This document shows, piece by piece, positions 3,304 through 50,539 of a stretch of 64,000 nt of DNA. Position numbers and translations under genes: made by a program. Position 1 is the first letter of the stretch. Each line of letters begins with the position of its first letter. The stretch comes from a virus. The DNA lies in IMG/VR virus record IMGVR_UViG_3300035703_000041, positions 1 to 64,000 of that record. The stretch is one strand, 5' to 3'. The notes under the pieces were generated by a model. It was not told the DNA's origin and did no database searches. It saw nothing but the letters and a program-made list of their open reading frames with translations.

Positions 3304-3502
3304 TGAAGAGTTACTTAAAAAGCTAAATGAATTATATGATAGACTTAAGAAAGCTTATTACTTTCCAGATCCAAGTATAACTCATCAATTAAAGCTTTTA
3401 CTTGAATCGTACAGAAACGAACAAACACGCAGGGCACAAATTGCACAAGAAAAATTTATGCAGCAAAATAAAAAATTAGTTGACAGGATAGATATAAATT
3501 AA
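3266..3502 (+). CDS. Hypothetical helical protein
   Basis: Coupled ORF, MHPL...LSDEEL. Confidence 0.55.
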   Translation: MHPLAGDLTQLSDEELLKKLNELYDRLKKAYYFPDPSITHQLKLLLESYRNEQTRRAQIAQEKFMQQNKKLVDRIDIN

Positions 3503-4688: not shown

Positions 4689-4698
4689 GGAGAATAAC

Positions 4699-5504: not shown

Positions 5505-5662
5505 CACAAAAAGAAATAATGACCGAGCTGGACATTCTAAAAAAGAATGTTGCAGACCTACAATTAGAATTGAACAAAGCCTACAAGCGTATTGCCGAGT
5601 TAAATGAACAAATTATTGCTTTACAGCGTGAGCAGAGTGTAAACTTAGGGCAACGTTATTAA
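5501..5662 (+). CDS. 53-aa coiled-coil protein (not in ORF track)
   Basis: MTQKEIMTELDILKKNVADLQLELNKAYKRIAEL; ATGA overlap with groES. Confidence 0.5.
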   Translation: MTQKEIMTELDILKKNVADLQLELNKAYKRIAELNEQIIALQREQSVNLGQRY

Positions 5663-5671
5663 GAGGAATAC

Positions 5672-6598
5672 ATGAAGCAACTTTGGACAGAATTGTATAG
5701 GCCAAAAACTGTAGATGATTACGTATGGCGAGATGAAGAACAAAAGTCTCAAGTGGAGCAATGGGTAAATGAGAAATCAATCCCTCACATCTTGTTAAGC
5801 GGATCACCTGGTGTTGGTAAAACTACACTTGCTAAGATTTTAATCAACGCAATTGGTGTTGAAAAATATGATGTGCTAGAAGCAAACGGATCTAAAGAAG
5901 GTCGTAAGATTGAATGGATTGACAAGCTTATTAACTTTTGTCAAACTGTTCCGTTTGGTCCCTTTAAAGTTGTGCTAATTGATGAGGCTGATTATCTTAA
6001 CCCGCATTCAGTACAACCAGCATTGCGTAACTTAATGGAACAATTTAGTGATAGTGTACGTTTCATTTTAACTTGTAACTATCCTAATAAAATTATCCCA
6101 GCAATTCATTCACGCAGCCAAGGTTTCCACGTAGAAAAAATTGATCATACTGAGTTTACTGCAAGGTGCGCCACTATTCTTGTAAGTGAAGGAGTTGAGT
6201 TTGATCTTGATATGCTTGACATTTATGTTACTGCCGCTTACCCAGACTTACGTAAGTGCATTAACAACTTACAAATGGCAAGCGTAAATGGCAAATTAAG
6301 CAATCCAAAAGAATCAAACACAAGCACAATTGATTATAGAATCAAGATGGTTGAACTTTTTAAGTCTGGTAAAATTGCAGAAGCACGTAAGCTTGCTTGT
6401 GAGAATGTACGTCCAGATGAAATGGAAGATATGTTCCGTTGGATGTACAGCAATTTAGATTTATGGGCAAAAACTCCTGAAGGACGAGATCAAGCTATTG
6501 TTAAGATTAGAGATGGCTTAGTTAGTCATTCCTTAGTAGCTGATACTGAAATTAATCTTGCAGCCACACTTGTTGAACTAACCACAATAGAAGAATAA
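5672..6598 (+). CDS. Clamp loader AAA+ subunit (gp44/RFC small-like)
   Basis: LWTELYRP, GSPGVGKTT, IDEAD, FILTCNY, HSR motifs. Confidence 0.92.
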   Translation: MKQLWTELYRPKTVDDYVWRDEEQKSQVEQWVNEKSIPHILLSGSPGVGKTTLAKILINAIGVEKYDVLEANGSKEGRKIEWIDKLINFCQTVPFGPFKVVLIDEADYLNPHSVQPALRNLMEQFSDSVRFILTCNYPNKIIPAIHSRSQGFHVEKIDHTEFTARCATILVSEGVEFDLDMLDIYVTAAYPDLRKCINNLQMASVNGKLSNPKESNTSTIDYRIKMVELFKSGKIAEARKLACENVRPDEMEDMFRWMYSNLDLWAKTPEGRDQAIVKIRDGLVSHSLVADTEINLAATLVELTTIEE

Positions 6599-6599
6599 A

Positions 6600-6932
6600 A
6601 TGAAAAAGCATCGTTACCTATTTGCCAAGTATCTAGCTAAACCACGCGATCCAACAAAGACACACATTAAGGGGTATATGACAGATCCAAAAAATGTGCG
6701 TTATGATGAAGTAGTTGGGTTTAGTGTTGGTCTAAAAAACAAGGATCACGAAAATCAAATCATCATTGACATTGATGGACAAAAAGTAATTAAAAACTCC
6801 ATGAACGAAAACAACGATTGGAGCCAATTGATGAATTACTTTTTGAGTACATATGAAAAGCAGTTGCTGAACTTTATGCGTAAAACAGGTGGAACTACAC
6901 CGCAGGTTGCAGTGGACACCCCAAAGAGCTAA
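6600..6932 (+). CDS. Conserved hypothetical protein
   Basis: ORF following the clamp loader. Confidence 0.55.
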   Translation: MKKHRYLFAKYLAKPRDPTKTHIKGYMTDPKNVRYDEVVGFSVGLKNKDHENQIIIDIDGQKVIKNSMNENNDWSQLMNYFLSTYEKQLLNFMRKTGGTTPQVAVDTPKS

Positions 6933-6960
6933 GTCCTTGTTTTCATTGCAGAATCTTTTT
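6928..6960. promoter_or_regulatory. Repeated upstream element, copy 1 (IHF-like site)
   Basis: gctaagtccttgttttcattgcagaat; reverse AAACAAGGACTTA is 1 mismatch from WATCAANNNNTTR. Confidence 0.5.
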
Positions 6961-6983
6961 TTGCTATTTTGACACTTTTTTGG

Positions 6984-7011
6984 TTGACGTTCTGGACAGT
7001 GATGTTATTAT
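6984..7011 (+). promoter_or_regulatory. Early sigma70-type promoter
   Basis: TTGACG-16-TATTAT with TGn extension. Confidence 0.75.
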
Positions 7012-7063
7012 CCAAAATGTGAGCTGCGGGAAATTGTTCCTGTAGCAGTTAGGAGATTACTAT

Positions 7064-7498
7064 ATGGCTAAGCTTTTTTCCGTAGTTGGTGTGTCCCGTA
7101 TCCGTGAGAAGGATGCTATGAAGTTGCGTGTTGCTAATGGCAAGGCTGAGGCCCGCGCCAAGCGCCTTACGCGAGGTGGACACGTAGAAGTTGTGCTTTT
7201 TGATACTAAGCCTATGACGAAGGTGGACGCGCTTGCGTGGCTTGAGCGTACCCATCCCGACCTTGCTGCCCAGATTGGTGTTAAGCAGGCTGCTGCTGTG
7301 CGCGCCAAGGTTGCAAAGTCCGCTCCTAAAGCGGAAGTTGTAGAGGTCGCTGCTAAGGAAGTGGAAGTTGAGGTAGTTGATGAGCCCCTTAGCCCTGCTG
7401 CGAAGCTTGCACTTAAGCGCGTCAGGGACGCCGCTAGGAAGCGTGAAAAGCGCGCCCTGGAACGTGCTGTTAAGGAAGCTGCCAAGTCCGTAGCGTGA
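7064..7498 (+). CDS. Basic Ala/Lys-rich early protein
   Basis: SD AGGAG; AAG/GAG-biased codons; 5' hairpin at 7023-7046. Confidence 0.7.
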   Translation: MAKLFSVVGVSRIREKDAMKLRVANGKAEARAKRLTRGGHVEVVLFDTKPMTKVDALAWLERTHPDLAAQIGVKQAAAVRAKVAKSAPKAEVVEVAAKEVEVEVVDEPLSPAAKLALKRVRDAARKREKRALERAVKEAAKSVA

Positions 7499-13598: not shown

Positions 13599-13983
13599 TA
13601 CAGTTACAATTAAAGTAAAGAATCCAGTTTGGTGGATGAGAAAGGCATATGCAAGTTATGTACAAGTTCCAGAATTTAACACCTTTACAGGTAGAGTGGT
13701 TCGCGATCATCGTGCTATTAAGCCTGGTCAAATTGGGCTAACAACACAGGATCCAAACTTTGACTTGCGAGTTATTGATATAGAGCGTATTGTTGCTGTT
13801 GATGACACAGTTATTACTCAACCAGTTAAAACTGAGTCAAGCACAAAAACTTGGACCGTCCAGGGGTCTAAGGGAAAAACTTATACCGTGACGCTGGATC
13901 ACGGACGTTATGAATGTACATGCCCAGGCTTCCAATTCCGGCGGTCCTGCAAGCACGTAGATGAACAGAAGGAAAATGTTTAA
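13573..13983 (+). CDS. SWIM zinc-finger protein
   Basis: GSKGKTYTV...CTCPGFQFRRSCKH. Confidence 0.75.
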   Translation: MQKMLNVGDTVTIKVKNPVWWMRKAYASYVQVPEFNTFTGRVVRDHRAIKPGQIGLTTQDPNFDLRVIDIERIVAVDDTVITQPVKTESSTKTWTVQGSKGKTYTVTLDHGRYECTCPGFQFRRSCKHVDEQKENV

Positions 13984-31379: not shown

Positions 31380-33650
31380 TTGGCACTTCAAAATAATCCA
31401 GAAATTGATCGGATCGTAGCACATGCTATTGATATTGCAAAAGCCGCTAGCCATAAACTAGTTACAACGGAACATTTGGCACTAGCATTAATTGTCAACG
31501 AAGGCTTTAGAAATGTCATTGAAGATGCCGGTGTTGATCAAAATTCGCTAGTTGATGAGATTTCTAAACACCTAGCACAACAAACTCACCTTATGGGCGA
31601 TGCAGTAGAACAGCCAAATAAAACACATGCACTTGAACGTGTATTCAATCGAGCATTTACACAAGTTCTGTTTAGCAATCGTCAAGTAATGCAACCAGTT
31701 GACTTGTATCTAAGTCTTAGCAATGAGACTGATAGTTGGGCTGCATACTTCTTTACCAAATATGGTATGGAAAAGTCTAAGATTGTAACTTCGCATAATA
31801 ACAAAAATGCGCGTGGCGGTAATTTAGATTCTTCTGGTGCGGATGCAATTCTAAAAGAGTATTGTACTGATCTAAATGAACTTGCTGAGAATAACGAAAT
31901 CGATCCAGTTATTGGTCGCGAAAACGAACTTACTGAGATCGCACAGATCCTTGCACGTCGTAATAAAAACAACGTGCTTATGGTTGGTGATCCAGGTGTA
32001 GGCAAGACTGCAATTGCAGAAGGGCTTGCACTTAACATTGTTAATAAAAATGTTCCAAAGTTCTTAAAAGACTGGCGTGTCTATAACTTGGACATTGGTA
32101 CATTACTTGCTGGATCTAAATTCCGTGGTGAGTTTGAAGAAAAGCTACGTGAAGTAATTAACGCTCTAAGTAAGAAGGGTAAGTCTATTCTATTCGTAGA
32201 TGAAGCGCACCAAATGCGCGGAGCCGGTTCAGGCGGACACAGCGATGTTGACTTCTCTAACATGATTAAGCCAGCTCTTGCAAAAGGTAAGATCAAAGTT
32301 ATTGCCTCAACTACGTGGGAAGAATACAGCACAAGCTTTGAAAAGGATCGCGCACTTATGCGTCGTTTCCATAGGCTTACTGTTGATGAACCTACTCCTG
32401 TACATGCTAAGGAAATCCTAAAAGGATTACGTCCTTACTTTGAGAAGTTCCACACTGCTACAATTACAGATGATGCTATTGAAGCAGCAGTTGATCTTAG
32501 TGTTCGTTATCAAAGCGATAAGAAGCTACCAGACAAGGCACTTGACTTAATCGACAGTGCTTGTGCTCGTGAGAAAGTAAAAGATCACAAGAATTTTGCT
32601 GTTACACGTGGCATGATTGTTGATGAGATTAGTACTGCAACAAAGATTCCAATTAGCCAAATTGATGCTAAGAGTGATGAAGTTGCTGTTGATCTTGAAG
32701 GTGCAATTAAGTCTAAGCTGTACGGACAAGATGCAGCAGTAGACAATGTACTTGAAAAGGTATATGTTGCTAAAGCTGGACTTAAGAGCATCAACAAGCC
32801 AATGGGTGTGTTCCTCTTCTTAGGACCAACTGGTACAGGTAAGACTGAGCTTGCTAAGTTGCTTGGTGAAAACATGGGCATGAAGCTACTACGCTATGAC
32901 ATGGGCGAATACCAAGAGAAGCATAGCGTTGCAAGGCTTATTGGTGCACCTCCAGGATATGTAGGATATGATGACGGTAACTTAGGTGGTGGTTTGCTAA
33001 TTAGCGAAATTACTAAAAACCCAAACGCAATTATCCTCTTTGACGAAGTGGAAAAGGCACATCCTGATGTTATGACAGCACTGCTTGCTCTCATGGACGA
33101 GGGTATGGTAACCGGATCAAACGGTAAGAAAGCTGATGCACGTAATTGTCTTGTTATTATGACAAGCAATCTGGGTGCTCAGGAGAGCGAGAAGAACAGC
33201 ATCGGTTTTGGATCTCCTGAAAAGAAGGGAGAGGACGATAAGGCGGTGCAGCAGTACTTCCGCCCAGAATTCCGCAACCGTTTAGATGGTATTGTTAAGT
33301 TTGGTAAGCTTGATCAAATGAGCTTGCGTAAAATCGTAGCTAAGTTCATTGTTGAGATTAATGAACTGCTTGGTGATCGTGGTATTAAACTACGTCTTGA
33401 TGAACCAGTAGTTGATTTAATTATTGAACAGGGCTATGATGCTAAGATGGGTGCGCGTCCTATTAGTCGTAAGATTAATGAACTCGTAAAAGTTCCACTT
33501 AGCCGCAAAATTCTCTTTGATAAGATCCCTGCAGGTGTTACACTTGTAGCGAAGCTTACTGATGGTAAAATTGAATTTGTACAACATGACGACAACAAAG
33601 TGGTAGGAGATGATGGAATTATCCGCGTTGATGGCTCGGTTACAATCTAA
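31380..33650 (+). CDS. clpA: ClpA-like AAA+ unfoldase
   Basis: Clp N-domain; GDPGVGKT and GPTGTGKT Walker A; IGF loop; no ClpB coiled coil. Confidence 0.92.
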   Translation: MALQNNPEIDRIVAHAIDIAKAASHKLVTTEHLALALIVNEGFRNVIEDAGVDQNSLVDEISKHLAQQTHLMGDAVEQPNKTHALERVFNRAFTQVLFSNRQVMQPVDLYLSLSNETDSWAAYFFTKYGMEKSKIVTSHNNKNARGGNLDSSGADAILKEYCTDLNELAENNEIDPVIGRENELTEIAQILARRNKNNVLMVGDPGVGKTAIAEGLALNIVNKNVPKFLKDWRVYNLDIGTLLAGSKFRGEFEEKLREVINALSKKGKSILFVDEAHQMRGAGSGGHSDVDFSNMIKPALAKGKIKVIASTTWEEYSTSFEKDRALMRRFHRLTVDEPTPVHAKEILKGLRPYFEKFHTATITDDAIEAAVDLSVRYQSDKKLPDKALDLIDSACAREKVKDHKNFAVTRGMIVDEISTATKIPISQIDAKSDEVAVDLEGAIKSKLYGQDAAVDNVLEKVYVAKAGLKSINKPMGVFLFLGPTGTGKTELAKLLGENMGMKLLRYDMGEYQEKHSVARLIGAPPGYVGYDDGNLGGGLLISEITKNPNAIILFDEVEKAHPDVMTALLALMDEGMVTGSNGKKADARNCLVIMTSNLGAQESEKNSIGFGSPEKKGEDDKAVQQYFRPEFRNRLDGIVKFGKLDQMSLRKIVAKFIVEINELLGDRGIKLRLDEPVVDLIIEQGYDAKMGARPISRKINELVKVPLSRKILFDKIPAGVTLVAKLTDGKIEFVQHDDNKVVGDDGIIRVDGSVTI

Positions 33651-36102: not shown

Positions 36103-39100
36103 ATGATCAATAAAACAATACTAAATGAGGGCGGCAATGTTGAAATAGATGGCATTGCTGCCCAACGTCTTGATTTAAACAAAGTTTCTCGCAGTGCTGT
36201 AGTTGCTGAAATAGATAAAGCACTACAAATTATTAACAGCACATTTAATAAAGCATACGGAGTTCCTTTATGGAGCCCAGAATTAATAAAAAACAAAGAG
36301 TTTTTAAGTGGTAGTGCGTTTCACTTCTTTAACGTAAAAATACCAGATGATCAATTCACTAAAGTTAAGTCTAGCGTTGGTGACATCGACACTATGGTTG
36401 ATAAAGATTTAGCACAAAAAGCAAGTGACTTTTTAACTAAAGCAAAAGGCAAGCAGTTTGGACCAGCAAAGTTAGTTGGCTTTAAACCTAACCCAGGAAT
36501 GGATACACTTATTAGTTTGTGGCAATTCAACAATCCACCTGTGAATGTACAAATAGATATGGAACTTGTCGACTACGATAAAGGTAGTCCAACAGAGTGG
36601 AGCAAGTTTAGCCACAGTAGCGCATGGGAAGATTTAAGTGTTGGTGTTAAAGGCGTATTCCACAAGTATCTATTGCGTTCGCTAACACATAAAGATGCTA
36701 AAGATCGCTACATTCAAATGAAAACAAAGCTTAAAAAAGTTACAGCAGCGGATTTAGCGTTTGCTGTTTCAGGTGGCGTGCGTAATAAGTTTGAACCAGT
36801 AATTGATCCAAAAACTAAAAAAACAGCAGTAGCACCAGACGGACTTCCAATATACAAGGAAGTGCCAGCAAGTGAAAGCAAGTATGTAACAGACATTAAA
36901 GGTATGTTTACACTTTTAATTGGACGCAAACCAGTTAAAGGTGAAGAAAAATTATTGGGTAGTTTTGTTGGCGTACTATCTTTAATCAACAAATATTTTA
37001 GCAATGAAGATAAAGATAAAATCACAAGTGCATTTATGGCATTAATATTTGGCCCTGCTGCTCAACAACTATACAAAGGTGATCCAGCAACAGATAAAAG
37101 AGAAAAAGAAATTGCTCTTAACAAAATGTTGGAAATTTTAAAAGTTAATGTTGATAAAGCAAGTTTAGCAAAAACTGTTGCAGATTATTATTCTAAGTAT
37201 AAAGCTGAATCAATTACAGAAGCAGATGCACCAGACTATAAGCGTCAAGGCATCAAGCACATTTATAATCCTGGCTCAACTGTTGAAATGAAAGATGTTG
37301 ACTTCTTAGCATTTATTGATGCAATTGCTAAGAATGGTGGCACACTTGATAACATACCAATTACACTTAAAGTAGATGGTGCAGGTATACGCTTTGGACG
37401 AGATCAAAGTGATAAACCATTTTTTATGACTAGTCGTGTTACAAATCCAATTTACGCTGATAACGTTGGTATGTTTGAAAAGTACGCTAGAGATAATAAT
37501 GGCAATGAAGAACAAATTGCTCGTGCTGAAAAGTATGATCAAGCATTAAGTTTAATTGTTAACAGCGACTTTATTAAAGTATTACCAAAAGACACAATTG
37601 TCCAAGCAGAAATGATGTACAATCCAATGGCTGAAAAGACAAGTGCTGGACTTAAGTTTGTAAACATCCCATATGATCCAAAGTTACTTGGTAAACAAAT
37701 GACGCTTGTGCCAATTGTCGCAAGTACATATTCAACTGGCGAAGCATTACCAAACACAATTCTTCAAAAAGTAATAAGCAAGTCTACTCCTCAAATTAAA
37801 ATACTTGGTACTGAGTTACAGCATAGCGATATTGATGTAAAAAATATTGTTGAACCAATTGCTAAGATGGATGATACGCTTCGTGCTGCGTTAGCAAGTA
37901 GGAAGAAAAATGATCCAGCAAAAGCAAAAGCAAAAGAAATACTAACAACAGCACGCAAGGCAATTAGTGATGCAATCATTAATAGCCCTAACATTAAAGG
38001 TAAAGATAAGCTAGGTAAGACTATTGAAGGTTTAGTTATTGCTATGCCAAATGGTCAACTTGCTAAAGTTACCAGTAGCGAAATGAAAGGTGCAATGGCT
38101 GCAAAAGCTATTAAGAAAGCACCAACAACAGGCAGCAATAGAACTAAAGCTGCTATTGTTACTGCTGGTAGCTTTGTTGGCCACATAGGTCATCAAAAAG
38201 TTGTTGATACTGTTATTAACTTTGCTAAAAAAGTTGGCGGTGACCCGTACATTTACATTAGCAGTAAAGTGGGACCAGATGATCCTATTCCACCAGAAGT
38301 AAAATTAGCTACTTGGAAGAAAATGTATCCAGAGTATGCAAAAAGTTTCCAACTAATTGTAAGCCCAGATGGTGTAACTGTTCCAAGTCCAGTTAAAAAG
38401 ATTGAAAAAGAATTAGTACTACCAGCAAACAGTCCTTACAAAAAGATTGTATTAATGGTTGGTACTGATCGTTATGAAGGTTTCAAGAAGTGGATGGATA
38501 CTCTTGAAAAGCGTATGAAGGATCCAGTAGCATTAGCAAAATATGGTGGAACACAAGATCAAGTTGATTACGAAACTATTGCTATACCACGCGGCGCAGC
38601 ATTAGGTGGTATTGATGCAAGCTTCACACAACTACGCAATACATTAAAAGATCCTAATCTTTCACTAAAAGAAAAGTTAGCTGTTTGGTCAAAAGGATTT
38701 GGTGGAAAGCTAGACGAAGATTGGATCAAAAAGTTAATGATGCTTTCTGCTCAAGGCATGGGAATTAAGTTAGGAGAAGCTAAATCACCATGGGATAAAA
38801 TGGTTAGAGCTGTTCCCAAACTAAAAGGACATGAAGATAGAGTTAACGATATATTAAAAGCAATTAAGCAAGCAAATGCAGAATATCAAGCAATACTTGA
38901 TAAAGAAAAAAATCCATTAAAAGAAGATGATGATCTAAATGTCCGTTTCCATGATACATTAAATCCAGCACTATTTAGAAATAACAAGATGAGTCCTATC
39001 GTAAGAGAAAAGCTGCTAAAAATAGCAGAGGACTTTAAGGATAGTTTAGGTGTTAAGTTACCAAATCTAAAAGACATTACTGTAAGTGGCAGTAATGCTG

Positions 39101-42100
39101 CATTCACTTATACACCAAAAAGTGATATTGATCTACACTTAGTTGTTGATTTACCTGAAGCAGATGGCGATGCTACTTATAGGGAATTGTTTGATGCTAA
39201 GAAGTTCCAATACAACGAGCAGCATGACTACAAGATTAAAGAATACGATGTAGAACTTTATGTGCAAAATGCAAATGATGAACATGTAAGTCAAGGTATC
39301 TACAGTGTAATGAATGATGCTTGGATTAAAGAACCACAACCAGTAAGTGGCGAGTACGATGAAGACAGCACACGCGCCAAATATGATCAAATAAAGTATC
39401 TCATACAAAAAGCATTAACTGTAAGAGATTATGCTTTAGCAGACAAGCTACGTCGAACTATTAAAAAGTATCGTCAAGTTGGGTTACATTCAACTGGTGA
39501 GTTTGGTCCTGAAAATCTTGCATTCAAAGCATTGCGTGCTAATGGCTACATTAAGAAACTGTATGAGTTATTAAATGATATTAAGGACAAAGAGTTTAGT
39601 TTAGAGAGTAACGATCAACGATTACTTGAAATTGATATGAGTCCAGGAGCACTCAAAAAGTTCTCAACTACTGAGATTGCAAAGTCAACTAGTGTTGGTT
39701 TTGAGTTTGAAATGATCGTACCTAACATGATAGATGACGGCAGTGAAAGTGAACCAGATTACGATTATGATGAATATGTAACAGATTCAACTGTTACTGC
39801 TATGCAAGATGATTTAATTAGATTCTTTAGAGATACTGAAACAAGTACAGCAATTAAACGAGCAGTTGAAGAAGTATCAGATGAAATAAATGATTTTATT
39901 TTAATGGAGTTTGATGGTGAATTAGATTCTGTAGATCAGCAGAGACGATTAAGAGAATTGTATAAAGCAGATACTTCACTCGAAGATGATGAAATAGAAA
40001 AGAGCATTGAAGATCAAGATAGCACTTATGACGAAGTATTAAGTTCTTTGAGAGATGAGTATATGGAAGACTGGGACAATCTAAGTGGATTCTTAGAATA
40101 TAACAGTCTTGAAATGATGTCTGAATGGGCTAGTAGATTTAATTGGGAATGGCCACACTACACTGAAGCTGGCAGCGATGAAGTCGACGAACAAGCAATG
40201 CGTGAAGTAGCAGATGAAATCAAAAACGCTGTTAGTATGTCAGTTAGGTCTTCTCCTAATTATCATGCATTTAAGAAAAATAGAGAATCTGGTGTTTGGT
40301 ATTTAGAAACTGATAGTTCAATTAATGCTGATGAAAGTTCTGGTGAAGGTGGACTAGAATTAGTAAGTCCTCCATTGCCACTTGAGCAAGCATTAGAAAA
40401 GTTAGATGCAGTTCTAAATTGGATGCAGAGATACGGCGCATATACTGATAGTTCAACTGGGTTCCATATGGGTGTAAGCATTCCGCAAATGGAAAATGTT
40501 GACTACATTAAGTTAATATTATTCCTAGGTGACAAATATGTATTAGATCAATTTGGTCGTTTAGGCAATTCATACACCCGCAGCGCACTAGATAAGATGG
40601 AAGTACAAAATGTTCCATATGTTATGAAAAACATGCCAACTGTATTTGATGCTCTAAAAGGTGGATTAAACAAAGCAGCATTAAAAATGCTTGAATCAGC
40701 TCTTGTACCTCGAGGAGACAAATATACTAGCGTAAACATTAAGGGCAGCACAACACCTAGTGGAGACATCAAGGATAATTACATTGAATTCCGTAGTGCT
40801 GGTGGAGATTACTTAGAAGCGATTGAAAAGATTAAAAATACACTATTGCGTTATGTTCGTGTAATGGCGCTTGCTGCTGATCCAAATGAAGCAAAGGAAG
40901 AGTATGCTAAGAAACTCTACAAGATGCTATACAATGCTCAAAGCAATAAAAATGAAGATAATGTAGTTAGATTGTTTAGTATGTTTGCTAGCGGCAATAT
41001 TTCAAAAGCAGAACTTGTAATGAAGCTTAAGGCAAAACAAGAATTAAGATTGGCAAAGAAAAGAGGCCCAATTGATTACGCAGTCTTAGATAGGAATAGC
41101 GATCCTATTACTATAGTTAAAGCAATTAACAATAGCGAAGCTTTAACAAAAGGAATAGAATGGGAAAGAAGCAACCCAGTATCTGGCGGTGTGAGAGGTG
41201 TAAGATTAGCGACACTAGACGATATAAAAGCTGTAGCTAATAGAAATACTGAAGGACAATGGCAACGTTGGAATGTTTATGGACACGAAGGACAAATCTT
41301 TACTAGTGTTTCAGCTCGCAATCGTCAAGAAGCAAGTCAACTTGCACTACGCTGGGGAAGAGAAAACGATAGTGTTATTTCTCATGTTACTCCTGAATCT
41401 GAGGATGAATTTGCAGCACTACATAGAACAGAATCAAAAGAAGTTGTAACTGAACTTGCTAACAAGCCATACCCTTTTAAAACACAAGGCAATAAAAAGC
41501 ATTTTCAAGCTCGTTTCGTAACAGACAACAAACTAGTGTATAATGTTATGATTTTGGTCCCTCTTGAAGATTTTGAACCAAATAAAGCAGAAATAGAATT
41601 TTTCTCTGAAAATGAAGATGTTTTAAGAGGACATAAAATAACTGGAACTGGTGATTCTTTTAAAGTATTTGCGACTGTGTTAGAAATAATAAAAGCTTAT
41701 CTAACAAAGCACAAAACAATCAACGAATTTGAATTTGGTGCTAACAAAAGTGAACCGTCCCGTGTAAAGTTGTATGACACTATGGCAAAAATGTTACCAA
41801 AATATATTAATAATTTCAAATTTTTCAATAAGTATCCAAATAACTATAACGGATTCGCGTACCATTTTGTAAAAGTCAAAAAACCAACTACAGTAAAAGA
41901 AAATGAATTTGTAACTGAACTTGCTAATAAACCATATGAATATGATTTAGAAAGCGATAGCAGAGTTCTTCGTGCTACCTTTAAAACAGATGCTGGTCAA
42001 CCTTATAGAATTTATATCGTAAAAGAGAAAGACGAAGAAGGGGAAGTAAAATATATCTCTGTTGAGTTCTCTGCTCTTAAATATGTAGATGGTCGATTCT

Positions 42101-42510
42101 TAACTACACAAGCTAAAACCGGAACAGGTGACGCATTTAGAATATTTGCAACAGTTGGTGCAGTACTAAAACGCTATTTGGATGAAAATCCAGAAATTAC
42201 TAGATTTGAATTCTCTGGTGATAAGGATGAACCAAGTCGAATAAAGCTATATGACACTATGGCTAAAATGTTGCCTAAGTTTATTCCACAATTCAAACTA
42301 ATTGAAATTGAAAAAGGATTTATGTTTAATCATTATCAATTTTCAAAAGTAAGTAATGAATCAAAAAATCCAAGTTCATTGAAAGAATATATTGAAGTAT
42401 CTTACAAACCTTTTATTCGAGAAAAGAAAGAAGAACCAAAAAAAGAGTTAACAGACATGCAAAAAGCGTGTATACTAGGCGGACAAGAATATACAGGTGA
42501 GATAAACTAA
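36103..42510 (+). CDS. 2135-aa multidomain internal-head polyprotein (NTase, KxDG ligase-like, HIGH NTase, NTase, amidoligase, tandem repeat)
   Basis: SGSA..GDID; KVDGAG; GHIGH; SGSNA..SDIDLH; GFEFE..D.S..ELVSPP..STGFH..EFR; TAAATA at 36071. Confidence 0.75.
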   Translation: MINKTILNEGGNVEIDGIAAQRLDLNKVSRSAVVAEIDKALQIINSTFNKAYGVPLWSPELIKNKEFLSGSAFHFFNVKIPDDQFTKVKSSVGDIDTMVDKDLAQKASDFLTKAKGKQFGPAKLVGFKPNPGMDTLISLWQFNNPPVNVQIDMELVDYDKGSPTEWSKFSHSSAWEDLSVGVKGVFHKYLLRSLTHKDAKDRYIQMKTKLKKVTAADLAFAVSGGVRNKFEPVIDPKTKKTAVAPDGLPIYKEVPASESKYVTDIKGMFTLLIGRKPVKGEEKLLGSFVGVLSLINKYFSNEDKDKITSAFMALIFGPAAQQLYKGDPATDKREKEIALNKMLEILKVNVDKASLAKTVADYYSKYKAESITEADAPDYKRQGIKHIYNPGSTVEMKDVDFLAFIDAIAKNGGTLDNIPITLKVDGAGIRFGRDQSDKPFFMTSRVTNPIYADNVGMFEKYARDNNGNEEQIARAEKYDQALSLIVNSDFIKVLPKDTIVQAEMMYNPMAEKTSAGLKFVNIPYDPKLLGKQMTLVPIVASTYSTGEALPNTILQKVISKSTPQIKILGTELQHSDIDVKNIVEPIAKMDDTLRAALASRKKNDPAKAKAKEILTTARKAISDAIINSPNIKGKDKLGKTIEGLVIAMPNGQLAKVTSSEMKGAMAAKAIKKAPTTGSNRTKAAIVTAGSFVGHIGHQKVVDTVINFAKKVGGDPYIYISSKVGPDDPIPPEVKLATWKKMYPEYAKSFQLIVSPDGVTVPSPVKKIEKELVLPANSPYKKIVLMVGTDRYEGFKKWMDTLEKRMKDPVALAKYGGTQDQVDYETIAIPRGAALGGIDASFTQLRNTLKDPNLSLKEKLAVWSKGFGGKLDEDWIKKLMMLSAQGMGIKLGEAKSPWDKMVRAVPKLKGHEDRVNDILKAIKQANAEYQAILDKEKNPLKEDDDLNVRFHDTLNPALFRNNKMSPIVREKLLKIAEDFKDSLGVKLPNLKDITVSGSNAAFTYTPKSDIDLHLVVDLPEADGDATYRELFDAKKFQYNEQHDYKIKEYDVELYVQNANDEHVSQGIYSVMNDAWIKEPQPVSGEYDEDSTRAKYDQIKYLIQKALTVRDYALADKLRRTIKKYRQVGLHSTGEFGPENLAFKALRANGYIKKLYELLNDIKDKEFSLESNDQRLLEIDMSPGALKKFSTTEIAKSTSVGFEFEMIVPNMIDDGSESEPDYDYDEYVTDSTVTAMQDDLIRFFRDTETSTAIKRAVEEVSDEINDFILMEFDGELDSVDQQRRLRELYKADTSLEDDEIEKSIEDQDSTYDEVLSSLRDEYMEDWDNLSGFLEYNSLEMMSEWASRFNWEWPHYTEAGSDEVDEQAMREVADEIKNAVSMSVRSSPNYHAFKKNRESGVWYLETDSSINADESSGEGGLELVSPPLPLEQALEKLDAVLNWMQRYGAYTDSSTGFHMGVSIPQMENVDYIKLILFLGDKYVLDQFGRLGNSYTRSALDKMEVQNVPYVMKNMPTVFDALKGGLNKAALKMLESALVPRGDKYTSVNIKGSTTPSGDIKDNYIEFRSAGGDYLEAIEKIKNTLLRYVRVMALAADPNEAKEEYAKKLYKMLYNAQSNKNEDNVVRLFSMFASGNISKAELVMKLKAKQELRLAKKRGPIDYAVLDRNSDPITIVKAINNSEALTKGIEWERSNPVSGGVRGVRLATLDDIKAVANRNTEGQWQRWNVYGHEGQIFTSVSARNRQEASQLALRWGRENDSVISHVTPESEDEFAALHRTESKEVVTELANKPYPFKTQGNKKHFQARFVTDNKLVYNVMILVPLEDFEPNKAEIEFFSENEDVLRGHKITGTGDSFKVFATVLEIIKAYLTKHKTINEFEFGANKSEPSRVKLYDTMAKMLPKYINNFKFFNKYPNNYNGFAYHFVKVKKPTTVKENEFVTELANKPYEYDLESDSRVLRATFKTDAGQPYRIYIVKEKDEEGEVKYISVEFSALKYVDGRFLTTQAKTGTGDAFRIFATVGAVLKRYLDENPEITRFEFSGDKDEPSRIKLYDTMAKMLPKFIPQFKLIEIEKGFMFNHYQFSKVSNESKNPSSLKEYIEVSYKPFIREKKEEPKKELTDMQKACILGGQEYTGEIN
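41446..42350 (+). repeat. Tandem ~155-aa domain duplication inside the giant ORF
   Basis: VTELANKPY...TGTGD.F..FATV...EPSR.KLYDTMAKMLPK.I occurs twice, 465 nt apart. Confidence 0.85.
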
Positions 42511-42658: not shown

Positions 42659-43188
42659 TGTTATTAACAGATTACTATAAATCTGTTTTAGAAAAAGAAC
42701 ACGCCAACGGAGAATGGGGTATTGCTTCTGTTCATTATGCACCACGTGTTGCAAATATGATGAAGCGTTATAATCTAAATGAAGTTTTAGATTACGGTTC
42801 AGGTGCAGGCAATTTAGAAAAAACACTAAAAACTATATTACCTGATGTAATTGTTTATAATTATGAGCCAGGTATACCTAAATGGAATATTATTCCAGCA
42901 CCATGTAAAATGGTTGCTTGTATTGATGTTATTGAACATATTGAACCTGAGTGTATAGATTCTGTATTAGATGATTTAGAAAGAATTATTGAGGGTTACG
43001 CATTTATATCAATTTCTACTACATTAGCAAATAGAGTATTAAACAATGGATGGAATGCTCACATTTGCCTAAAAGATCCACAAGAATGGAAAGAAATTTT
43101 TGAGAGAAGATTTCAAATAATTTGCCCTGGAATGTATGACGGCGGTGTAGAAATTGAAATATGCAGGAGAGACAATGAAAATATATGA
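42658..43188 (+). CDS. Class I SAM methyltransferase
   Basis: VLDYGSG, CIDVIEHI. Confidence 0.8.
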   Translation: MLLTDYYKSVLEKEHANGEWGIASVHYAPRVANMMKRYNLNEVLDYGSGAGNLEKTLKTILPDVIVYNYEPGIPKWNIIPAPCKMVACIDVIEHIEPECIDSVLDDLERIIEGYAFISISTTLANRVLNNGWNAHICLKDPQEWKEIFERRFQIICPGMYDGGVEIEICRRDNENI

Positions 43189-43693
43189 GTTAGCAGGTAA
43201 ACCAACAGTTTTCGTAGATATGGATGGCGTGCTTGCTGACCTGTTTAACCACGTTGGTGACATTCACGATGTTGAACATTACAATCAAATGACTGATCAA
43301 CAGTGGCAAGATTTTTTTCAAAATACTAATGCTTATCACTTGTTTAAGGATTTACCCCCATTCCCAACAGCAAATCGTTTACTACGTATGGTAAAAGGAA
43401 TGGTTGGTGGATACAAAATTCTTTCAAGTCCACTTAACTTTGACCGTGAAGGCAGCATAAAAGGCAAGCGTGAGTGGTTAAGTAGGCATATATCTGTAGC
43501 CCCAGATGGCGTTATTTTCGAGCATGAAAAATACAAATATGCTGTTAGTAACGGTAAACCAAACATATTAATTGATGATTACGGTGTAAACATTAAAAAA
43601 TGGCGTGCTGCTGGCGGTATTGGAATTAAGTACCAAGCAGATGAAAACAGTTTAGAAGAATTAGCGGAACAGTTAGCGGCTGCTTTGAAATAA
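43175..43693 (+). CDS. 5'(3')-deoxyribonucleotidase (NT5C HAD)
   Basis: DMDGVLAD, LSSP, LIDD; leader MKIYE|. Confidence 0.85.
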   Translation: MKIYELAGKPTVFVDMDGVLADLFNHVGDIHDVEHYNQMTDQQWQDFFQNTNAYHLFKDLPPFPTANRLLRMVKGMVGGYKILSSPLNFDREGSIKGKREWLSRHISVAPDGVIFEHEKYKYAVSNGKPNILIDDYGVNIKKWRAAGGIGIKYQADENSLEELAEQLAAALK

Positions 43694-43715: not shown

Positions 43716-45401
43716 ATGAAAATTAAAGAATTATTAGAGGGTGTTGGACGCATTACACCATATAATCAAACAGTTGATGTAGGGCCAAACGAAATCAAAA
43801 AACAAGCAGCTAAGTTTGGATTTAAAGTAGACAAGGACGGTTATCCTCCTGTTATAGGCAACGGACGCTACGCTAAAAATTCCACCCCTAACAAACTAAT
43901 GAATCTTGGACTTACTGAATCAAAAATTATTGAGGCTAGAGGTGTAACTGCTCGCGTTGCTGGTGAGCGATACATAAATGATAAAGATCCAAATGATTAC
44001 AGAGTTATCCAATCCATTAAAGTTATAAATCCACCAAAAACTCCAGCATACAAAACCGCTGAAGAACTTAAAGCTGCTATCAAGGAATATCTTCCTAGAA
44101 ATGCTAAAACAGTCGATGACAACAAACATGGCAGTGATTTAAGAGCTGCAATCATAGCAAAAGTTGCTACACCATCAAATGATGTTGAGTATTGGATAAG
44201 GTATATTAAAGCAGTACCTCCAACGGGTGTACATCAAATGTGGCAAACACTACGCGGATACAGTTATGATAATCCAAGATCAGCTAGTGAAAAGATTAAA
44301 CTTAAACCATCTGATTTAATTAAAGATGAAAGTCCTAAAAATCTAAAACAACTAGCAACAGAAATTATGTCTTCTATCGAAGCAATGGGTGATGAAGAGT
44401 TGACAAACGCAATGCGTCAAGCAGTTAATCATGCCGTACAAGGTAAAGACATTGTAATTAAAGATGGTGTTAAATTTGCTACAGCTATATCTAAATATGC
44501 AGGAGAATATTTAGGTGCAATGTCGCTGATGACCGGTAAGATCATGAAAGGTGATCTTAAAAAAGCTATGGAAGCATTAGACATTAATACATTAAAAGGC
44601 AGTAAAATTACTTTCCCACAAGCAAGATTGCAAGAACTATATGACAGCACTTTAACAACATCAGATGGCAAAATATTACAAATAAGCACCAAGATGCATA
44701 AAACCGGTTCTGGATCAAGTTTAAGCGGTGTAGTAAAGCAACTTAATGATGATATTGAATCACAGTATCCAAAAGGTGCTGCTGTTTTACGTATGCTTGG
44801 TGGTGAATCAAGTGGTGCAGCTGGTGTGTTAAAAGCTGCTCAAGAGTACAAATTAATTAATGCCTCAGATGTAAAAGAAGTAATGAGTATGGATCCTGGT
44901 TCTAAAGATCCAACAATTATTAAAAGTCCAAGATTGCAAAGATTATTTTCAGAACAAAAAGTTAGTGCTGGAGCACCAAAAAGATTTGGTTACACAATAC
45001 GCAGACATTTAATGGCTGCTATTGCAAACAGGACAGTTAAAACAATTAATGAAGATAATGAAGTATTAACTGCACTTATGCTCGCTTTAAACAACAACAA
45101 TTATTTGCAAGTTGTTACTGAAACATCTATAACTGGCAACGATGTTACTATGACTTTTTATACAAAATATCCAACAGAATTTAGTGGCAAACCTAAATTA
45201 CAAAATGCTGCTTTTTGGAGCACTGGTGAACAAGGTAGAATAGCATTCTCATTACCTACAACTAATGTTGATGTTGAAGTTGAAGAACCAGAAGTAGAAG
45301 TTCCAGTAAAAAGAAAACCAGTACCAATTACAGCAAGAAATCCTAAATTAGATAAATCAAAGTCAGCCCCGAAAGGAGTTGGTCGCGGTAAGAGGGATTA
45401 A
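43716..45401 (+). CDS. Internal-head-type polyprotein with possible PD-(D/E)XK module
   Basis: Leader MKIKELLE|; junction LTE|SKIIE|; GEY..YDS..ISTK; TAAATA at 43691. Confidence 0.55.
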   Translation: MKIKELLEGVGRITPYNQTVDVGPNEIKKQAAKFGFKVDKDGYPPVIGNGRYAKNSTPNKLMNLGLTESKIIEARGVTARVAGERYINDKDPNDYRVIQSIKVINPPKTPAYKTAEELKAAIKEYLPRNAKTVDDNKHGSDLRAAIIAKVATPSNDVEYWIRYIKAVPPTGVHQMWQTLRGYSYDNPRSASEKIKLKPSDLIKDESPKNLKQLATEIMSSIEAMGDEELTNAMRQAVNHAVQGKDIVIKDGVKFATAISKYAGEYLGAMSLMTGKIMKGDLKKAMEALDINTLKGSKITFPQARLQELYDSTLTTSDGKILQISTKMHKTGSGSSLSGVVKQLNDDIESQYPKGAAVLRMLGGESSGAAGVLKAAQEYKLINASDVKEVMSMDPGSKDPTIIKSPRLQRLFSEQKVSAGAPKRFGYTIRRHLMAAIANRTVKTINEDNEVLTALMLALNNNNYLQVVTETSITGNDVTMTFYTKYPTEFSGKPKLQNAAFWSTGEQGRIAFSLPTTNVDVEVEEPEVEVPVKRKPVPITARNPKLDKSKSAPKGVGRGKRD

Positions 45402-47129: not shown

Positions 47130-47558
47130 ATGTCACGCGGATTAATGAAAAAGTATATAGATATACTAATGGAAGCTTTAAGCTATTCCAGCTTGCAAGA
47201 TGCAGGAGATGATTATAGTCCTGGCAATACTCAAATTTGGTATTGGAGAGAAGATCTTGGACGCGATATGATGATGGGATATGATTTCCTTAAAAAGCAA
47301 AACAAGCTTCCGGATCCAGCAAATTTATCAGCTACACATGTACTAATTGGTAGCATTGCTGAAACTAATTTAGATAAAATTTATTCAATGATGCAATCAG
47401 AAAGTTGGAGCCCACAGGGTGAAGCTAGAGATTTAATTAATAAAAGCGGGGCTGGTCATACAAGTATGAGTGTTGGTGATATTATTGTAATTAATAATGA
47501 TGCATCTATGGTTGATAAAGTTGGGTTCGTAAACCTAGCAACAGGGGAAGAAATATAA
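47130..47558 (+). CDS. YodL-like domain protein with head-type leader
   Basis: L..IY...GHTSMSVGDII...VD.VGF; leader MKKYIDILME|; TAAATA at 47105. Confidence 0.6.
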   Translation: MSRGLMKKYIDILMEALSYSSLQDAGDDYSPGNTQIWYWREDLGRDMMMGYDFLKKQNKLPDPANLSATHVLIGSIAETNLDKIYSMMQSESWSPQGEARDLINKSGAGHTSMSVGDIIVINNDASMVDKVGFVNLATGEEI

Positions 47559-48934
47559 TGTTACTTGAAAGTTTATTAAAAGAGTTTGATGAAGCAGTAA
47601 ACAAACCTAAATTTACTGGTTATTGGAAAGCTCAAGATAAAGCACCTCCAGGCAAGAAAATGGTTGGTGAAGAAGAAAAAACTACAGAAGCATCAACTTT
47701 GGATACTGACATTGAATATGAACCAAGTGTAGATCAAGAGTTTGATAAGAAAGAGCTTGCAGCATTGTTAACTCAAAAATTAACAGGACTAGCACCAAAA
47801 GAAGAACGAGCAATTAGATTAAAAATATTTTATGATTATACTTATGATCAAATTGGTGAAAAATTTGGGGTATCTGGTGATAGAGCAAGAGACATCTTTA
47901 TGAAGGGAATTAGAAAATTGAGGCACCCTTCTCGCGCGAGAGAAATTAGACCTTTCCTTGAGGATGAAAATCCAACAGATAAAATTACAATGGATATACC
48001 ACTATTTTTACGTATGATGGAATATGCTAAAGAAGATGCAAAAACAGATATGGACTTGCATCAAGTAACTGCTCGCGCAATAGAATTAATGCAACAACAT
48101 GACTACCTATGTATGGATAATTATGATACTATCATAAACAATAGCGAACCTATAGATGAAGGTTGGTTAGATAAAGTTTACTCTGCTGGTCGTAACTTTG
48201 CTGATACTGCCACTCTAGGTGGTTACAAGTATGCACGAGCTGGTGCTGATTACGCTGCTAAGAACATTGGCAATAAATTAGGGTTCGATGTGAAACCTAC
48301 CACATATCAAAAAGAACTTGATCAGGAAGTTGAAAAACTTAACAAAGATTGGGAAAAGGAACCAGGTGCAAGTCTAGCTGGCATGGGTGGAGCAATGGCT
48401 TTACCTCTAGCCGGTCAATACGGCGCTGCTGTTAAAGGCGCACAGGGGTTAGGTGGTCAAGCATTAGATGCTTACGGTAAGTTTGTTAAAACATATCCAT
48501 TGGCTAAAAAAGCTTTAGGTTTAGAAAACAAAGATGAAGATATAGATGAAGAGAAAAAAGGTCTTTACTATTATGTAAACAAGCGTAAAAAGGCTGGCAC
48601 AAGCAGACCAGCTAGTCATCCAAAAGCACCAAGCGAACAAGATTGGAAGAACGCTGCTAAGACTGCAAAGAAAGAAAGTGTGGGCGAAGCGGGTCAATTT
48701 TCATATGGAGCTAAAACTCCACGCAAAGGCACAGTTGCTTACAACGCAGCACAAAAGCGTAAAGAAGATGAAAAAAGACAAAAACCAATTGAGCCAAAAG
48801 ATCAAATGGTCGGTGTTGCTAAGGTAACAAAAGAAGGCAAGGAAAAAGGCGCTGATGGCAAAGCTTGCTGGCCAGGTTATCGTTATGCTGGCACAGAGAA
48901 CGGCAAAGACAAGTGTGTGAAAGTTAAGAAGTAA
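47558..48934 (+). CDS. Modular polyprotein containing an RpoD region-4 module
   Basis: KGIRKLRHPSR..EIRPFLE; about 7 short modules bounded by xxE junctions. Confidence 0.65.
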   Translation: MLLESLLKEFDEAVNKPKFTGYWKAQDKAPPGKKMVGEEEKTTEASTLDTDIEYEPSVDQEFDKKELAALLTQKLTGLAPKEERAIRLKIFYDYTYDQIGEKFGVSGDRARDIFMKGIRKLRHPSRAREIRPFLEDENPTDKITMDIPLFLRMMEYAKEDAKTDMDLHQVTARAIELMQQHDYLCMDNYDTIINNSEPIDEGWLDKVYSAGRNFADTATLGGYKYARAGADYAAKNIGNKLGFDVKPTTYQKELDQEVEKLNKDWEKEPGASLAGMGGAMALPLAGQYGAAVKGAQGLGGQALDAYGKFVKTYPLAKKALGLENKDEDIDEEKKGLYYYVNKRKKAGTSRPASHPKAPSEQDWKNAAKTAKKESVGEAGQFSYGAKTPRKGTVAYNAAQKRKEDEKRQKPIEPKDQMVGVAKVTKEGKEKGADGKACWPGYRYAGTENGKDKCVKVKK

Positions 48935-50539
48935 ATGTTAATTAAAGATTTGCTACAAGGATCTACGCATGTTAATGAGGATGCTATATCAGATCTTGCC
49001 AGTAAATTAAAGAGTACTAAAGCAACAAGTTATGATAATATCGATGCAATTATGCAAAAGATAGCAAAAGACAATAATATAACAGCTAAAGAATTACACG
49101 ACATTTGGGTAAAAAAGTACGGTGAAAAACCAGATGATTGGATTAAAGATCAACTTAATGAAGCATTAACCGCTAAAGATACAGTTGAACGTTGGATTGC
49201 TGTTTTTAAAAGTAGTAAGCATCCAAAGTTTGCAGGTAAAACTCCTGAGCAGCGTGAGAAGATGGCAAGAGCTGCACAATATCGTGCAGTTCATAATAAA
49301 AAAATTAATGAAGCAAAAGTAACACTATATACTGATCCATCATACTATGGTGCTGAAGTTGCAGACAATGCTGGCGAAGGTATACCCGTACAAGAAATAC
49401 CATTAGACAATTTAGTTGGGTTTGAACCTGACGTTAAAATGCAGGACAAAAAGAGTGCAGCCAATATGTCTAAAATGGTTGACCTATTGAAAGCAGGCAA
49501 GGGCAAAGAACTACCACCAATACTAGTACGCAAGTATAAAAATGGTTATCAAGTATTAGATGGACATCATAGATTCCATGCTTACAAGAAAGCTGGAATA
49601 AAAACTATTCCAGCTAAACTTGTTCCTGATGAAGATATCAAAGTTGTTGATAAAATTGAAGAAGGTCCAGTTTGGGATAAAGTAAAGAATACTGCACTTG
49701 CTGGAACAATGGCAGGTGCGCTAGGGTATGGTGCGCTAACAGGGCAGTTACGTGACGAACCAAGGCAAGTGCCAGTTGACAAACCTCCTTTAGAAATTAC
49801 TATACCAGGTGGTCAAGCAGAACCTGAAGTTAAAAAAGAACCAGAAAAACTATCACCAAGTACCGCTACAAACGCAAACAAAGAAATGGAAAAACTCGTG
49901 CTAACTGTTGCTTATCGCTCTGGGATAAGAGGTCAAGAGTTGGCACAATTCATGGGACAAGTTGCTCATGAGACACTAGGATTTCAACGTTTAGTAGAAG
50001 TTGGTAGCGCAGAATACTTTAATAGATATGATCCAGAACATAGTCCTAAAAAAGCAAAGATACTTGGTAATGTTAATCCTGGTGACGGCATACGTTATAA
50101 AGGTCGCGGGTTTATACAAATAACTGGGCGTGACAACTATAAGCGTGCTGGGAAAGCACTAGGGATTGATTTAGAAAATAACCCAAAGTGGGCAAGCAGT
50201 CCTAAAATTGCTGCTAAGATCGCTGTATGGTATTGGAAAAGTAGAGTAAAACCAGCAGTGGATGACTATACTGATACTATTGGTGTTACTTCAAAAATTA
50301 ATCCTAGTATGAATGGTCTTGGTGATAGAGACATGAACTTTCATCATTATTTAGAAAAGCTTAATTTAAATGAAAATTTTGCTGATGGAAAGAAACCAGG
50401 ACGCAAGGGATTAGCCAAAAGAGTTGGTGTTAATTGTAAACAAAGCGTGACAAAGTTAAGAAAAATTGCTAGTAATAGTAGTGGTGAAAAACAGCGTATG
50501 GCACATTGGTGTGCAAATATGAAAGGCGGCAAAAAATGA
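48935..50539 (+). CDS. Modular polyprotein with ParB/Srx and GH19 muramidase modules
   Basis: PPILV...VLDGHHRF; AQFMGQVAHET...YKGRGFIQITGRDNY. Confidence 0.75.
   Translation: MLIKDLLQGSTHVNEDAISDLASKLKSTKATSYDNIDAIMQKIAKDNNITAKELHDIWVKKYGEKPDDWIKDQLNEALTAKDTVERWIAVFKSSKHPKFAGKTPEQREKMARAAQYRAVHNKKINEAKVTLYTDPSYYGAEVADNAGEGIPVQEIPLDNLVGFEPDVKMQDKKSAANMSKMVDLLKAGKGKELPPILVRKYKNGYQVLDGHHRFHAYKKAGIKTIPAKLVPDEDIKVVDKIEEGPVWDKVKNTALAGTMAGALGYGALTGQLRDEPRQVPVDKPPLEITIPGGQAEPEVKKEPEKLSPSTATNANKEMEKLVLTVAYRSGIRGQELAQFMGQVAHETLGFQRLVEVGSAEYFNRYDPEHSPKKAKILGNVNPGDGIRYKGRGFIQITGRDNYKRAGKALGIDLENNPKWASSPKIAAKIAVWYWKSRVKPAVDDYTDTIGVTSKINPSMNGLGDRDMNFHHYLEKLNLNENFADGKKPGRKGLAKRVGVNCKQSVTKLRKIASNSSGEKQRMAHWCANMKGGKK

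Follow-up and report, generated by a model that had tools for sequence, protein, structure and literature searches.

The T4 head-loading system has two signals: a 10-amino-acid capsid-targeting sequence (CTS) and a gp21 cleavage motif, L/I-X-E (PMC9026906). A second kind of cargo, the phage polyvalent proteins, is tied to MuF or portal fusions; no association of their 2H domains with RNA ligases was seen, and glutamine-synthetase-like domains are unmentioned among them (PMC5512222). A third precedent is RlaP, a Pol-beta nucleotidyltransferase (NTase) that works with RNA ligases and extends RNA 3' ends by one or two nucleotides (bioRxiv 10.64898/2025.12.29.696909; PMC7824862). Here we analyze a gene that may draw on all three, in a 64,000-nucleotide stretch (the window) that is the first 64 kb of the 95-kb IMG/VR record IMGVR_UViG_3300035703_000041. 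CheckV estimates this record as only 26% complete, and therefore the full phage genome is probably about 350 kb. The gene is a single uninterrupted open reading frame on the plus strand (36103..42510, stop codon included) for a protein of 2135 amino acids. It strings together about nine enzyme-like domains, and we refer to the first five as A to E and to the region behind them as F. We estimate a probability of about 60% that the gene encodes the precursor of a "cargo polyprotein" of a T4-like jumbo phage, which is packaged, cleaved, and injected with the DNA. The data described below show what the domains are, that their motifs are conserved, that the modules are shuffled, and that a homologue is present in virions; targeting, cleavage, ejection, and all substrates are inferred for the phage of the window.

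The protein begins with a short leader, MINKTILNE (residues 1 to 9; 36103..36129, plus strand), a candidate capsid-targeting propeptide with an L-x-E end. Residues 1 to 10 were disordered in the AlphaFold2 model (predicted local distance difference test [pLDDT] score below 50). E9 was kept in all 36 aligned homologues, and the following G10, G11, and N12 were invariant. We surveyed the leaders of 197 family members that have domain A near the N terminus. Forty-nine of them begin M(E)GGN, and the other 148 have a leader, with a median length of 15 amino acids. Almost all of these leaders (143/148) end in [LIVM]-x-E directly before GGN, with L in 105 cases and I in 34. The leader in the window likewise fits the T4 pattern of an N-terminal propeptide ending in L/I-x-E (MINKTILNE|GGN). 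By sequence, the related leaders match the L/I-X-E specificity of gp21 and the CTS arrangement of T4 (PMC9026906).

Similar sites stand between the domains. There are 29 [LIV]xE sites in the protein, 7 of which are in linkers. E9, E373, E941, and E1176 all fall within low-pLDDT linkers, and they are well conserved: E373 was kept in 97% of homologues and E1176 in 100%, and a hydrophobic-x-E motif precedes domain D (at E941) in 22 of 23 fused homologues. The junction glutamates are conserved at 96 to 100%, whereas the flanking linker sequence is not. Of the other 25 [LIV]xE sites, one has only a single aligned homologue, and the rest are conserved at 68% or less. With a random placement of the four best-conserved sites, the probability that all are among the 7 linker sites would be 35/23751, or about 0.0015. 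The junctions also have counterparts at the starts of other proteins. When domain E or D comes first in a protein, the residues after the leader correspond to those after the internal junctions of the protein studied here (ILNE|VNMSPSAL in an E-first protein and LLE|IDMSPGAL internally; MNIHE|LDSY..KFNDRLNP in a D-first protein and LKE|DDDLNVRFHDTLNP internally). The evidence for processing thus appears unusually coherent, as far as sequence can tell.

A leader-bearing member of the family has been found in a virion. In Campylobacter phage vB_CcoM-IBB_35, the product of gene 1-56 was among 38 virion proteins identified by electrospray ionization-tandem mass spectrometry, with 17% coverage (PMC3322345, Tables S1 and S2). 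This gene (39251-40417) encodes a 44,446-Da protein that is 30% identical to domain A and has the leader MKLSELMFILE|GGN. The IBB_35 data support by experiment that a family member with a leader is associated with the virion, but they do not bear on cleavage or head location. In the Firehammerviruses CP220 (2969-5137) and IBB_35 (482-2637), the domain A gene comes right after a radical-SAM gene and is followed by a gene for a 92.7-kDa protein. This 92.7-kDa protein (gene 1-57) was also detected in IBB_35 virions.

Genes for a suitable protease and capsid are found in related phages. Peptidase_S77 is encoded near a gp23-like capsid gene in two of five related records that carry domains A, B, and C (G001 and G002), and S77 proteases are encoded by all three cultured phages with domain A genes (BUDD, CP220, and pv27). 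The record of the window itself has weak matches to the gp23-like family PF07068 at 87448-87654 and 81478-81618, outside the window, and one of the two has an in-frame TGA and TAG. These matches could represent a diverged, interrupted, or decayed capsid-family gene. The original prediction, made from the sequence alone, had proposed a pre-packaged kit that modifies or repairs host molecules (tRNA ends, proteins, NAD, or signaling nucleotides) before phage transcription starts, possibly as anti-defense. This reading is partly supported. Its pre-packaging part gains independent support from the leader, the conserved Glu junctions, the S77 and gp23-like genes of related records, and the IBB_35 virion homologue, whereas the targets and the anti-defense role are conjectural. 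The same prediction did not mention a likely proteolytic processing into separate enzymes.

The domains themselves are for the most part recognizable: predicted folds, together with fold and profile searches, support B at residues 376 to 672, C at 680 to 891, D at 942 to 1165, and E at 1180 to 1655. We modeled the protein with AlphaFold2 in two halves, using alignments of natural homologues, and obtained pLDDT scores of 86.5 for residues 1 to 940 and 73.3 for residues 941 to 2135. The VIA-align and Foldseek lists for these halves were taken up by domains B, C, and E and by the GNAT-like repeats described below; the VIA-align lists did not reach domain A, region F, or domain D, and the Foldseek lists did not reach A or F. 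An NCBIfam scan of the 2135-residue protein gave no match, phmmer against the PDB gave nothing significant, and megablast of the gene against cultured phages gave no match. Full-length relatives are 69 to 97% identical. A word-indexed search returned 340 relatives of 1174 to 3737 residues. They are all encoded on metagenomic contigs (up to 512 kb), and no functional name is attached to any of them.

Domain B (residues 374 to 672; 37222..38118, plus strand) is an RNA-ligase-type covalent nucleotidyltransferase, with K423 in a KVDG motif, an EGLVI motif IV, and K655. Motif I (K423-V-D425-G426) and R430 were invariant in 40 homologues. The fold is that of an adenylyltransferase, in which motifs III, IV, and V are present, and the closest folds were RNA ligases, with DNA ligases ranked lower. 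No Pfam ligase family matched its sequence. Domain C (residues 680 to 891; 38140..38775, plus strand) is an adenylyltransferase of the HIGH superfamily (HxGH, SxTxxR), similar to PPAT and NMNAT. Its GSFVGH694IGH697 and F841-T842-x-x-R845 motifs were invariant, its profile matched the HxGH region of RibF (E 7e-4), and its fold is the Rossmann-like fold of PPAT, NMNAT, or GCT. Therefore, both motifs and fold searches bear out the prediction of a KxDG ligase-type domain followed by a HIGH-motif nucleotidyltransferase. We found no conserved hydrophobic-x-E site between B and C, so these two would stay fused after cleavage. Domain C could supply a cofactor or NAD, or it could adenylylate a phosphorylated end.

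Domain C is followed by a linker and helix (residues 892 to 941; 38776..38925, plus strand) that ends in L-K-E941, with pLDDT scores below 50 at residues 892 to 911 and 936 to 940. Next is domain D (residues 942 to 1176; 38926..39630, plus strand), an ANT(9)/AadA-like Pol-beta NTase with a helical C-terminal half that ends in L-L-E1176. Pfam NTP_transf_2 scored 20.1 bits on this domain, 0.9 bits below the cut-off of 21. Foldseek matched it to the spectinomycin adenylyltransferase AAD(9) (6xz0) with a probability of 0.97 over 244 columns. G996, S997, D1008, D1010, and E1051 were invariant, and Synechococcus phage DSL-LC02 has a homologue that carries the annotation "aminoglycoside nucleotidyltransferase." The AAD(9) fold match, together with the invariant GS, DxD, and third carboxylate, confirms the second Pol-beta NTase of the original prediction. 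Stand-alone homologues of domain D occur in cultured phages, as g125 of the T4-like cyanophage S-CRM01 and gene 26 of Molly_1. Both have short N-terminal extensions with a hydrophobic-x-E motif (..HLISE|LKL.. and MNLKTLVE|T..). Other homologues are in Lak megaphages and in Caulobacter phage Cr30. Our search of the literature on cyanophage "cytitidyltransferase" proteins and on S-CRM01 virion proteomics found nothing usable.

Domain E (residues 1177 to 1655; 39631..41067, plus strand) is a glutamine-synthetase-fold amidoligase. It matches Amidoligase_2 (PF12224) in Pfam and has the glutamine synthetase catalytic fold, as had been predicted. Between its GFEFE strand and the Pfam-matched amidoligase core is an insert of about 150 residues (approximately residues 1212 to 1365; 39736-40197), which is strongly acidic and helical with pLDDT scores of 85 to 93. 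A gamma-glutamyl cyclotransferase-like (GGACT) gene is in the same record at 89979-90278, outside the window (E 2e-10). GGACT is the usual companion of phage amidoligases. GATase_6 was not found in the 95-kb record.

Region F (residues 1656 to 1784; 41068..41454, plus strand) has two small alpha/beta repeats (residues 1657 to 1770) and ends in V-T-E1784. It had no Pfam, PHROG, or listed structural match, although the fold-search lists effectively did not reach it, and the only similarity elsewhere in the window was weak (13786-13977; E 0.025). It is followed by two DUF6934 repeats (residues 1785 to 1939 and 1940 to 2084; 41455..42354, plus strand), each of which starts with LANKPY right after V-T-E and has a TGTGD motif inside. 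Their modeled fold appears to be GNAT-like. The last 51 residues (2085 to 2135; 42355..42507, plus strand) form a tail (..YKPFIREKK..MQKACILGGQEY..) that is kept at the extreme C terminus of 17 relatives with 59 to 84% identity, irrespective of the preceding domain. One possibility is that this tail is a further signal for targeting or anchoring; another is that it is a C-terminal propeptide, as in T4 Alt. The original prediction had the length of the protein right, but it placed the end of the gene at 41454, which is the last base of codon 1784; the stop is at 42510. Its list of domains lacked the repeats at residues 1657 to 1770, the two DUF6934 repeats, and the 51-residue tail.

Domain A (residues 10 to 373; 36130..37221, plus strand) is the least certain case. 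It matches phrog_19290, has a Pol-beta-NTase-like signature (GS..GDxD..QxDxE), and ends in I-T-E373. A profile search of 1.84 billion representatives found 717 representative clusters of this family at E <=1e-3, and many of its members are stand-alone proteins of 340 to 400 residues. G70, S71, D94, D96, and D152 were invariant in 78 homologues of 28 to 45% identity. In the AlphaFold2 model the GS follows a short strand, the DxD is on strand 94-100, and D152 is on strand 146-156, so the conserved residues are predicted to sit on the elements expected of a Pol-beta NTase. The sole lead from outside the family was a nearby viral cluster in the ESM Atlas (score 0.95, 196 shared features), 33% of whose members have NTP_transf_2. 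Pfam scans of 33 and 78 members gave no link to a known family, PDB profile searches gave no match, and the fold-search lists, which were filled by B and C, never reached A. The best 150 matches listed in the profile search were all clear family members, with no bridge to known NTases among them. PF10127 (RlaP) was absent from the matches listed for 33 members at E <=10 and for 78 members at E <=1, the latter covering 25 of the 44 single-member families. Since A shares with RlaP a genetic association with an RNA-ligase-fold domain, it may act like RlaP, by analogy, without being a PF10127 member.

These results agree with much of what had been proposed for the protein as a whole. Structure prediction and Foldseek recovered the expected folds for domains B, C, D, and E, and in each of the five enzyme domains the catalytic residues were invariant or nearly so across homologues at 30 to 50% identity. 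The prediction had named five domains, an amidoligase and four nucleotidyl-transfer domains that belong to three folds, and four of the five are confirmed. For the fifth, the Pol-beta NTase at domain A, the motif residues hold in the 78 homologues, and the fold is plausible but unproven, with no family match.

The domains are shuffled among relatives as modules. BLAST of the relatives against the 2135-residue protein revealed discrete, reusable blocks. A-B-C (residues 1 to about 890) is one such block, with 40 to 55% identity in well over 100 proteins that have wholly different C-terminal parts. These parts include ParB, amidoligase, lysozyme with LysM, and Hydrolase_2 with a peptidoglycan-binding domain, as well as NT5C, GNAT, a zeta/AAA_33 kinase, dCMP deaminase, and sigma region 4. 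Some of the proteins also contain HAD phosphatase domains along with AAA_33-type kinase domains. Domains D and E travel together among the relatives, and some giant relatives have three or four amidoligase copies. Such fusion partners are typical of injected polyvalent proteins (PMC5512222). A, B, and C were colinear in 80 IMG/VR loci, save three without C. Xanthomonas phage BUDD has four adjacent genes at 3998-7347, encoding A, a 333-residue protein of no family, B, and a 162-residue CTP_transf_like NTase. Its domain A starts with MGGN and has no leader, so BUDD has what is apparently a split, unpackaged version of the module. Since A, B, and C are colinear in the loci and adjacent in BUDD, we regard them, on gene order, as a conserved functional unit, whether fused or not.

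We propose the following model. The leader, which resembles the CTS of T4, would direct the 240-kDa precursor into the assembling prohead. There, a T4-gp21-type (S77) prohead protease would cut after the Glu of hydrophobic-x-E sites at E9, E373, E941, and E1176, and probably also at E1784 and E1939. This would release A (about 41 kDa), B-C (about 64 kDa), D (about 27 kDa), E-F (about 69 kDa), and the two GNAT-like domains. E-F would be an ATP-dependent carboxylate-amine ligase, and D an aminoglycoside-NTase-like Pol-beta enzyme. All would be ejected with the DNA and become active before any phage gene is expressed. A-B-C would then most likely heal and seal broken RNA ends, with A adding one or more nucleotides to the 3' end as RlaP does and B ligating. 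RNA-end repair is our best guess for the A-B-C function because the genetic link between a Pol-beta-like NTase and an enzyme of RNA-ligase fold resembles that between RlaP and its ligase in the RNA-repair systems of phages and bacteria.

Several observations weigh against parts of this model. A search of the record to which the window belongs (95 kb, 26% complete) found no prohead protease. The gene also has no T4-type late promoter (TATAAATA) nearby, and this word occurs 3 times in the window compared with 8 expected. The P3 residue before domain D is often M, F, V, or A, compared with L or I in T4, and only about half of the aligned homologues keep the sites that precede the DUF6934 repeats. 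The IBB_35 data give neither virion position nor cleavage state nor a mapped N terminus. Domain A has a GS-to-DxD spacing of 22 residues, which is longer than usual; hhalign aligned its helix 1 and GS motif with those of domain D at a reported probability of only 0.27, and its fold is unconfirmed. For the RNA-repair part, there is no kinase or phosphatase inside the 2135-residue protein, and domain C fits small-molecule adenylyltransferases and no known RNA-repair enzyme.

Could the protein be an ordinary cytoplasmic multi-enzyme fusion, produced in the course of infection and neither packaged nor cleaved, that serves to channel steps in RNA repair or in nucleotide or cofactor metabolism? The N-terminal extension and the glutamates would then reflect flexible-linker composition. 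This would suit the leaderless stand-alone A, B, and C genes of BUDD and pv27, which are presumably cytoplasmic, as well as the 49 family members that start directly at GGN and the lack of a visible protease gene or late promoter in the record. However, linker composition does not explain why 143 of 148 leaders end exactly in [LIVM]-x-E, or why junction glutamates are kept at 96 to 100% when the surrounding linker is not. Also against a cytoplasmic fusion are the IBB_35 virions, which contain a homologue with a leader, and the peptidoglycan hydrolases that relatives carry behind A-B-C. We therefore consider a cytoplasmic fusion unlikely. If the protein is packaged, it might still be a head core, scaffold, or bulky internal body, with enzyme folds that are relics or serve as nucleotide-binding modules to hold DNA. 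T4 core proteins and the inner-body proteins of phiKZ and SPN3US are likewise cut at x-E motifs (PMC9026906), and the long acidic helical insert and the conserved C-terminal tail would fit such a role. Even so, relics would not be expected to keep the catalytic residues of five enzyme domains (near-)invariant across homologues at 30 to 50% identity. The domain set is also shuffled freely among relatives, which an architectural role would not tolerate, and we find this explanation very hard to credit.

The enzymes might also have the DNA or nucleotide pool of the phage itself as their substrate, rather than host molecules, for example with the NTase, amidoligase, and GNAT in hypermodification and the ligase in nick sealing. 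The gene neighborhood does include a methyltransferase and the NT5C deoxyribonucleotidase, the domain A gene adjoins a radical-SAM gene in CP220 and IBB_35, and the GGACT gene is elsewhere in the record. Furthermore, the CP220 and IBB_35 phages are said to have modified guanine. However, the nearest folds of domain B are RNA ligases rather than DNA ligases, no known hypermodification enzyme family was matched, and head packaging fits an early pre-transcription role better than a replication-coupled modification. This makes an own-DNA role quite improbable in our view, and we favor the packaged, cleaved, and injected polyprotein. A broader proposal is more tentative, and we hold it at somewhat less than even odds: that T4-like jumbo phages have turned the CTS/gp21 system into a general platform for polyprotein delivery, including an injected RNA-repair module, which would arm the virion against host RNases or nucleotide-depleting defenses before phage transcription begins.

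Genes downstream in the window also start with look-alike leaders (MKIYEL.., MKIKELLEG, MLLESLLKE, and MLIKDLLQG). They encode NT5C (window 43175-43693), a 561-residue protein with no assigned function (43716-45401), a lone sigma-70 region 4 (47558-48934), and a ParB_N domain with a GH19 lysozyme (48935-50539). Because NT5C, sigma-70 region 4, and ParB are fused with A-B-C or D-E modules in relatives, these downstream genes appear to be clustered cargo genes. Another member of the gene cluster, on its upstream side (window 31380-33650), encodes a 756-residue protein with two AAA+ ATPase-type regions, which matches phrog_4871, "ATP-dependent protease" (E 8e-238).

If the model is correct, then the T4 CTS and the polyvalent injected proteins extend into a polyprotein system that is undescribed in the literature searched. 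Within limited access, that search returned no description of leader-targeted polyproteins with internal gp21-type junctions. A leader plus conserved hydrophobic-x-E linkers would then be a simple sequence rule by which to predict the proteins that uncultured T4-like giant phages inject. Several enzyme families have no assigned function, such as that of domain A, with 717 representative clusters but no model in Pfam, and these families are candidates for a counter-defense that acts early, before transcription. By injecting an RNA ligase and an NTase, phages would have a new route to pre-empt anticodon nucleases and RNA-cleaving abortive infection. Multi-cargo T4 delivery vectors could also be designed with the natural junctions as a guide.

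How does the proposed system compare with those already described? The internal proteins IPI-III and Alt of T4 (PMC9026906) share with it the short L/I-x-E propeptide, the S77 protease and gp23-like gene (here in related phages), and enzymes that are in the head and, as inferred here, ejected with the DNA. However, T4 cargo consists of single small proteins or one ADP-ribosyltransferase, and its enzymes differ from those here. The window instead encodes one putative 240-kDa precursor that would behave as a polyprotein, since its domains, about nine in number, are separated by further conserved x-E junctions. The head-internal proteins of phiKZ, 201phi2-1, and SPN3US are also numerous, processed after Glu at short motifs, and ejected. 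In those phages, however, the motifs are S/A-x-E and the protease is divergent, and the cargo is mostly non-enzymatic or a virion RNA polymerase rather than strings of enzymes for small molecules or RNA.

The enzymes have relatives in other phage systems. Phage RNA repair by T4 Rnl1/Rnl2 and RlaP also couples a Pol-beta-type NTase genetically to an ATP-dependent RNA-ligase-fold enzyme, and it too occurs in T4-like and jumbo phages. In contrast, domain A here has no PF10127 match and B has no Pfam ligase match, a HIGH NTase is attached, there is a putative packaging leader, and there is no Pnkp-type end-healing domain. The Amidoligase_2 proteins (PF12224) of phages such as phiEco32 are of the same family as domain E, with a glutamine-synthetase-like fold, and a GGACT gene is in the same record here. 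Those genes are usually paired with a GATase and a gamma-glutamyl cyclotransferase, whereas no GATase was found in the record of the window. The amidoligase here is instead inside a polyprotein, right behind an ANT-like NTase, and has an acidic helical insert of about 150 residues.

The polyvalent proteins (Iyer et al. 2017, PMC5512222) are similar in combining many unrelated effector domains with rampant shuffling. They share lysozyme, ParB, GNAT, and NTase partners, and they too are predicted to be delivered with the DNA. The difference is in how they would be loaded. No MuF or portal domain was found in the 2135-residue protein or in the Pfam lists of its relatives, and the leader peptide takes the place of that link. 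The system would therefore combine the CTS/gp21 cargo loading of T4 with the polyvalent protein principle.

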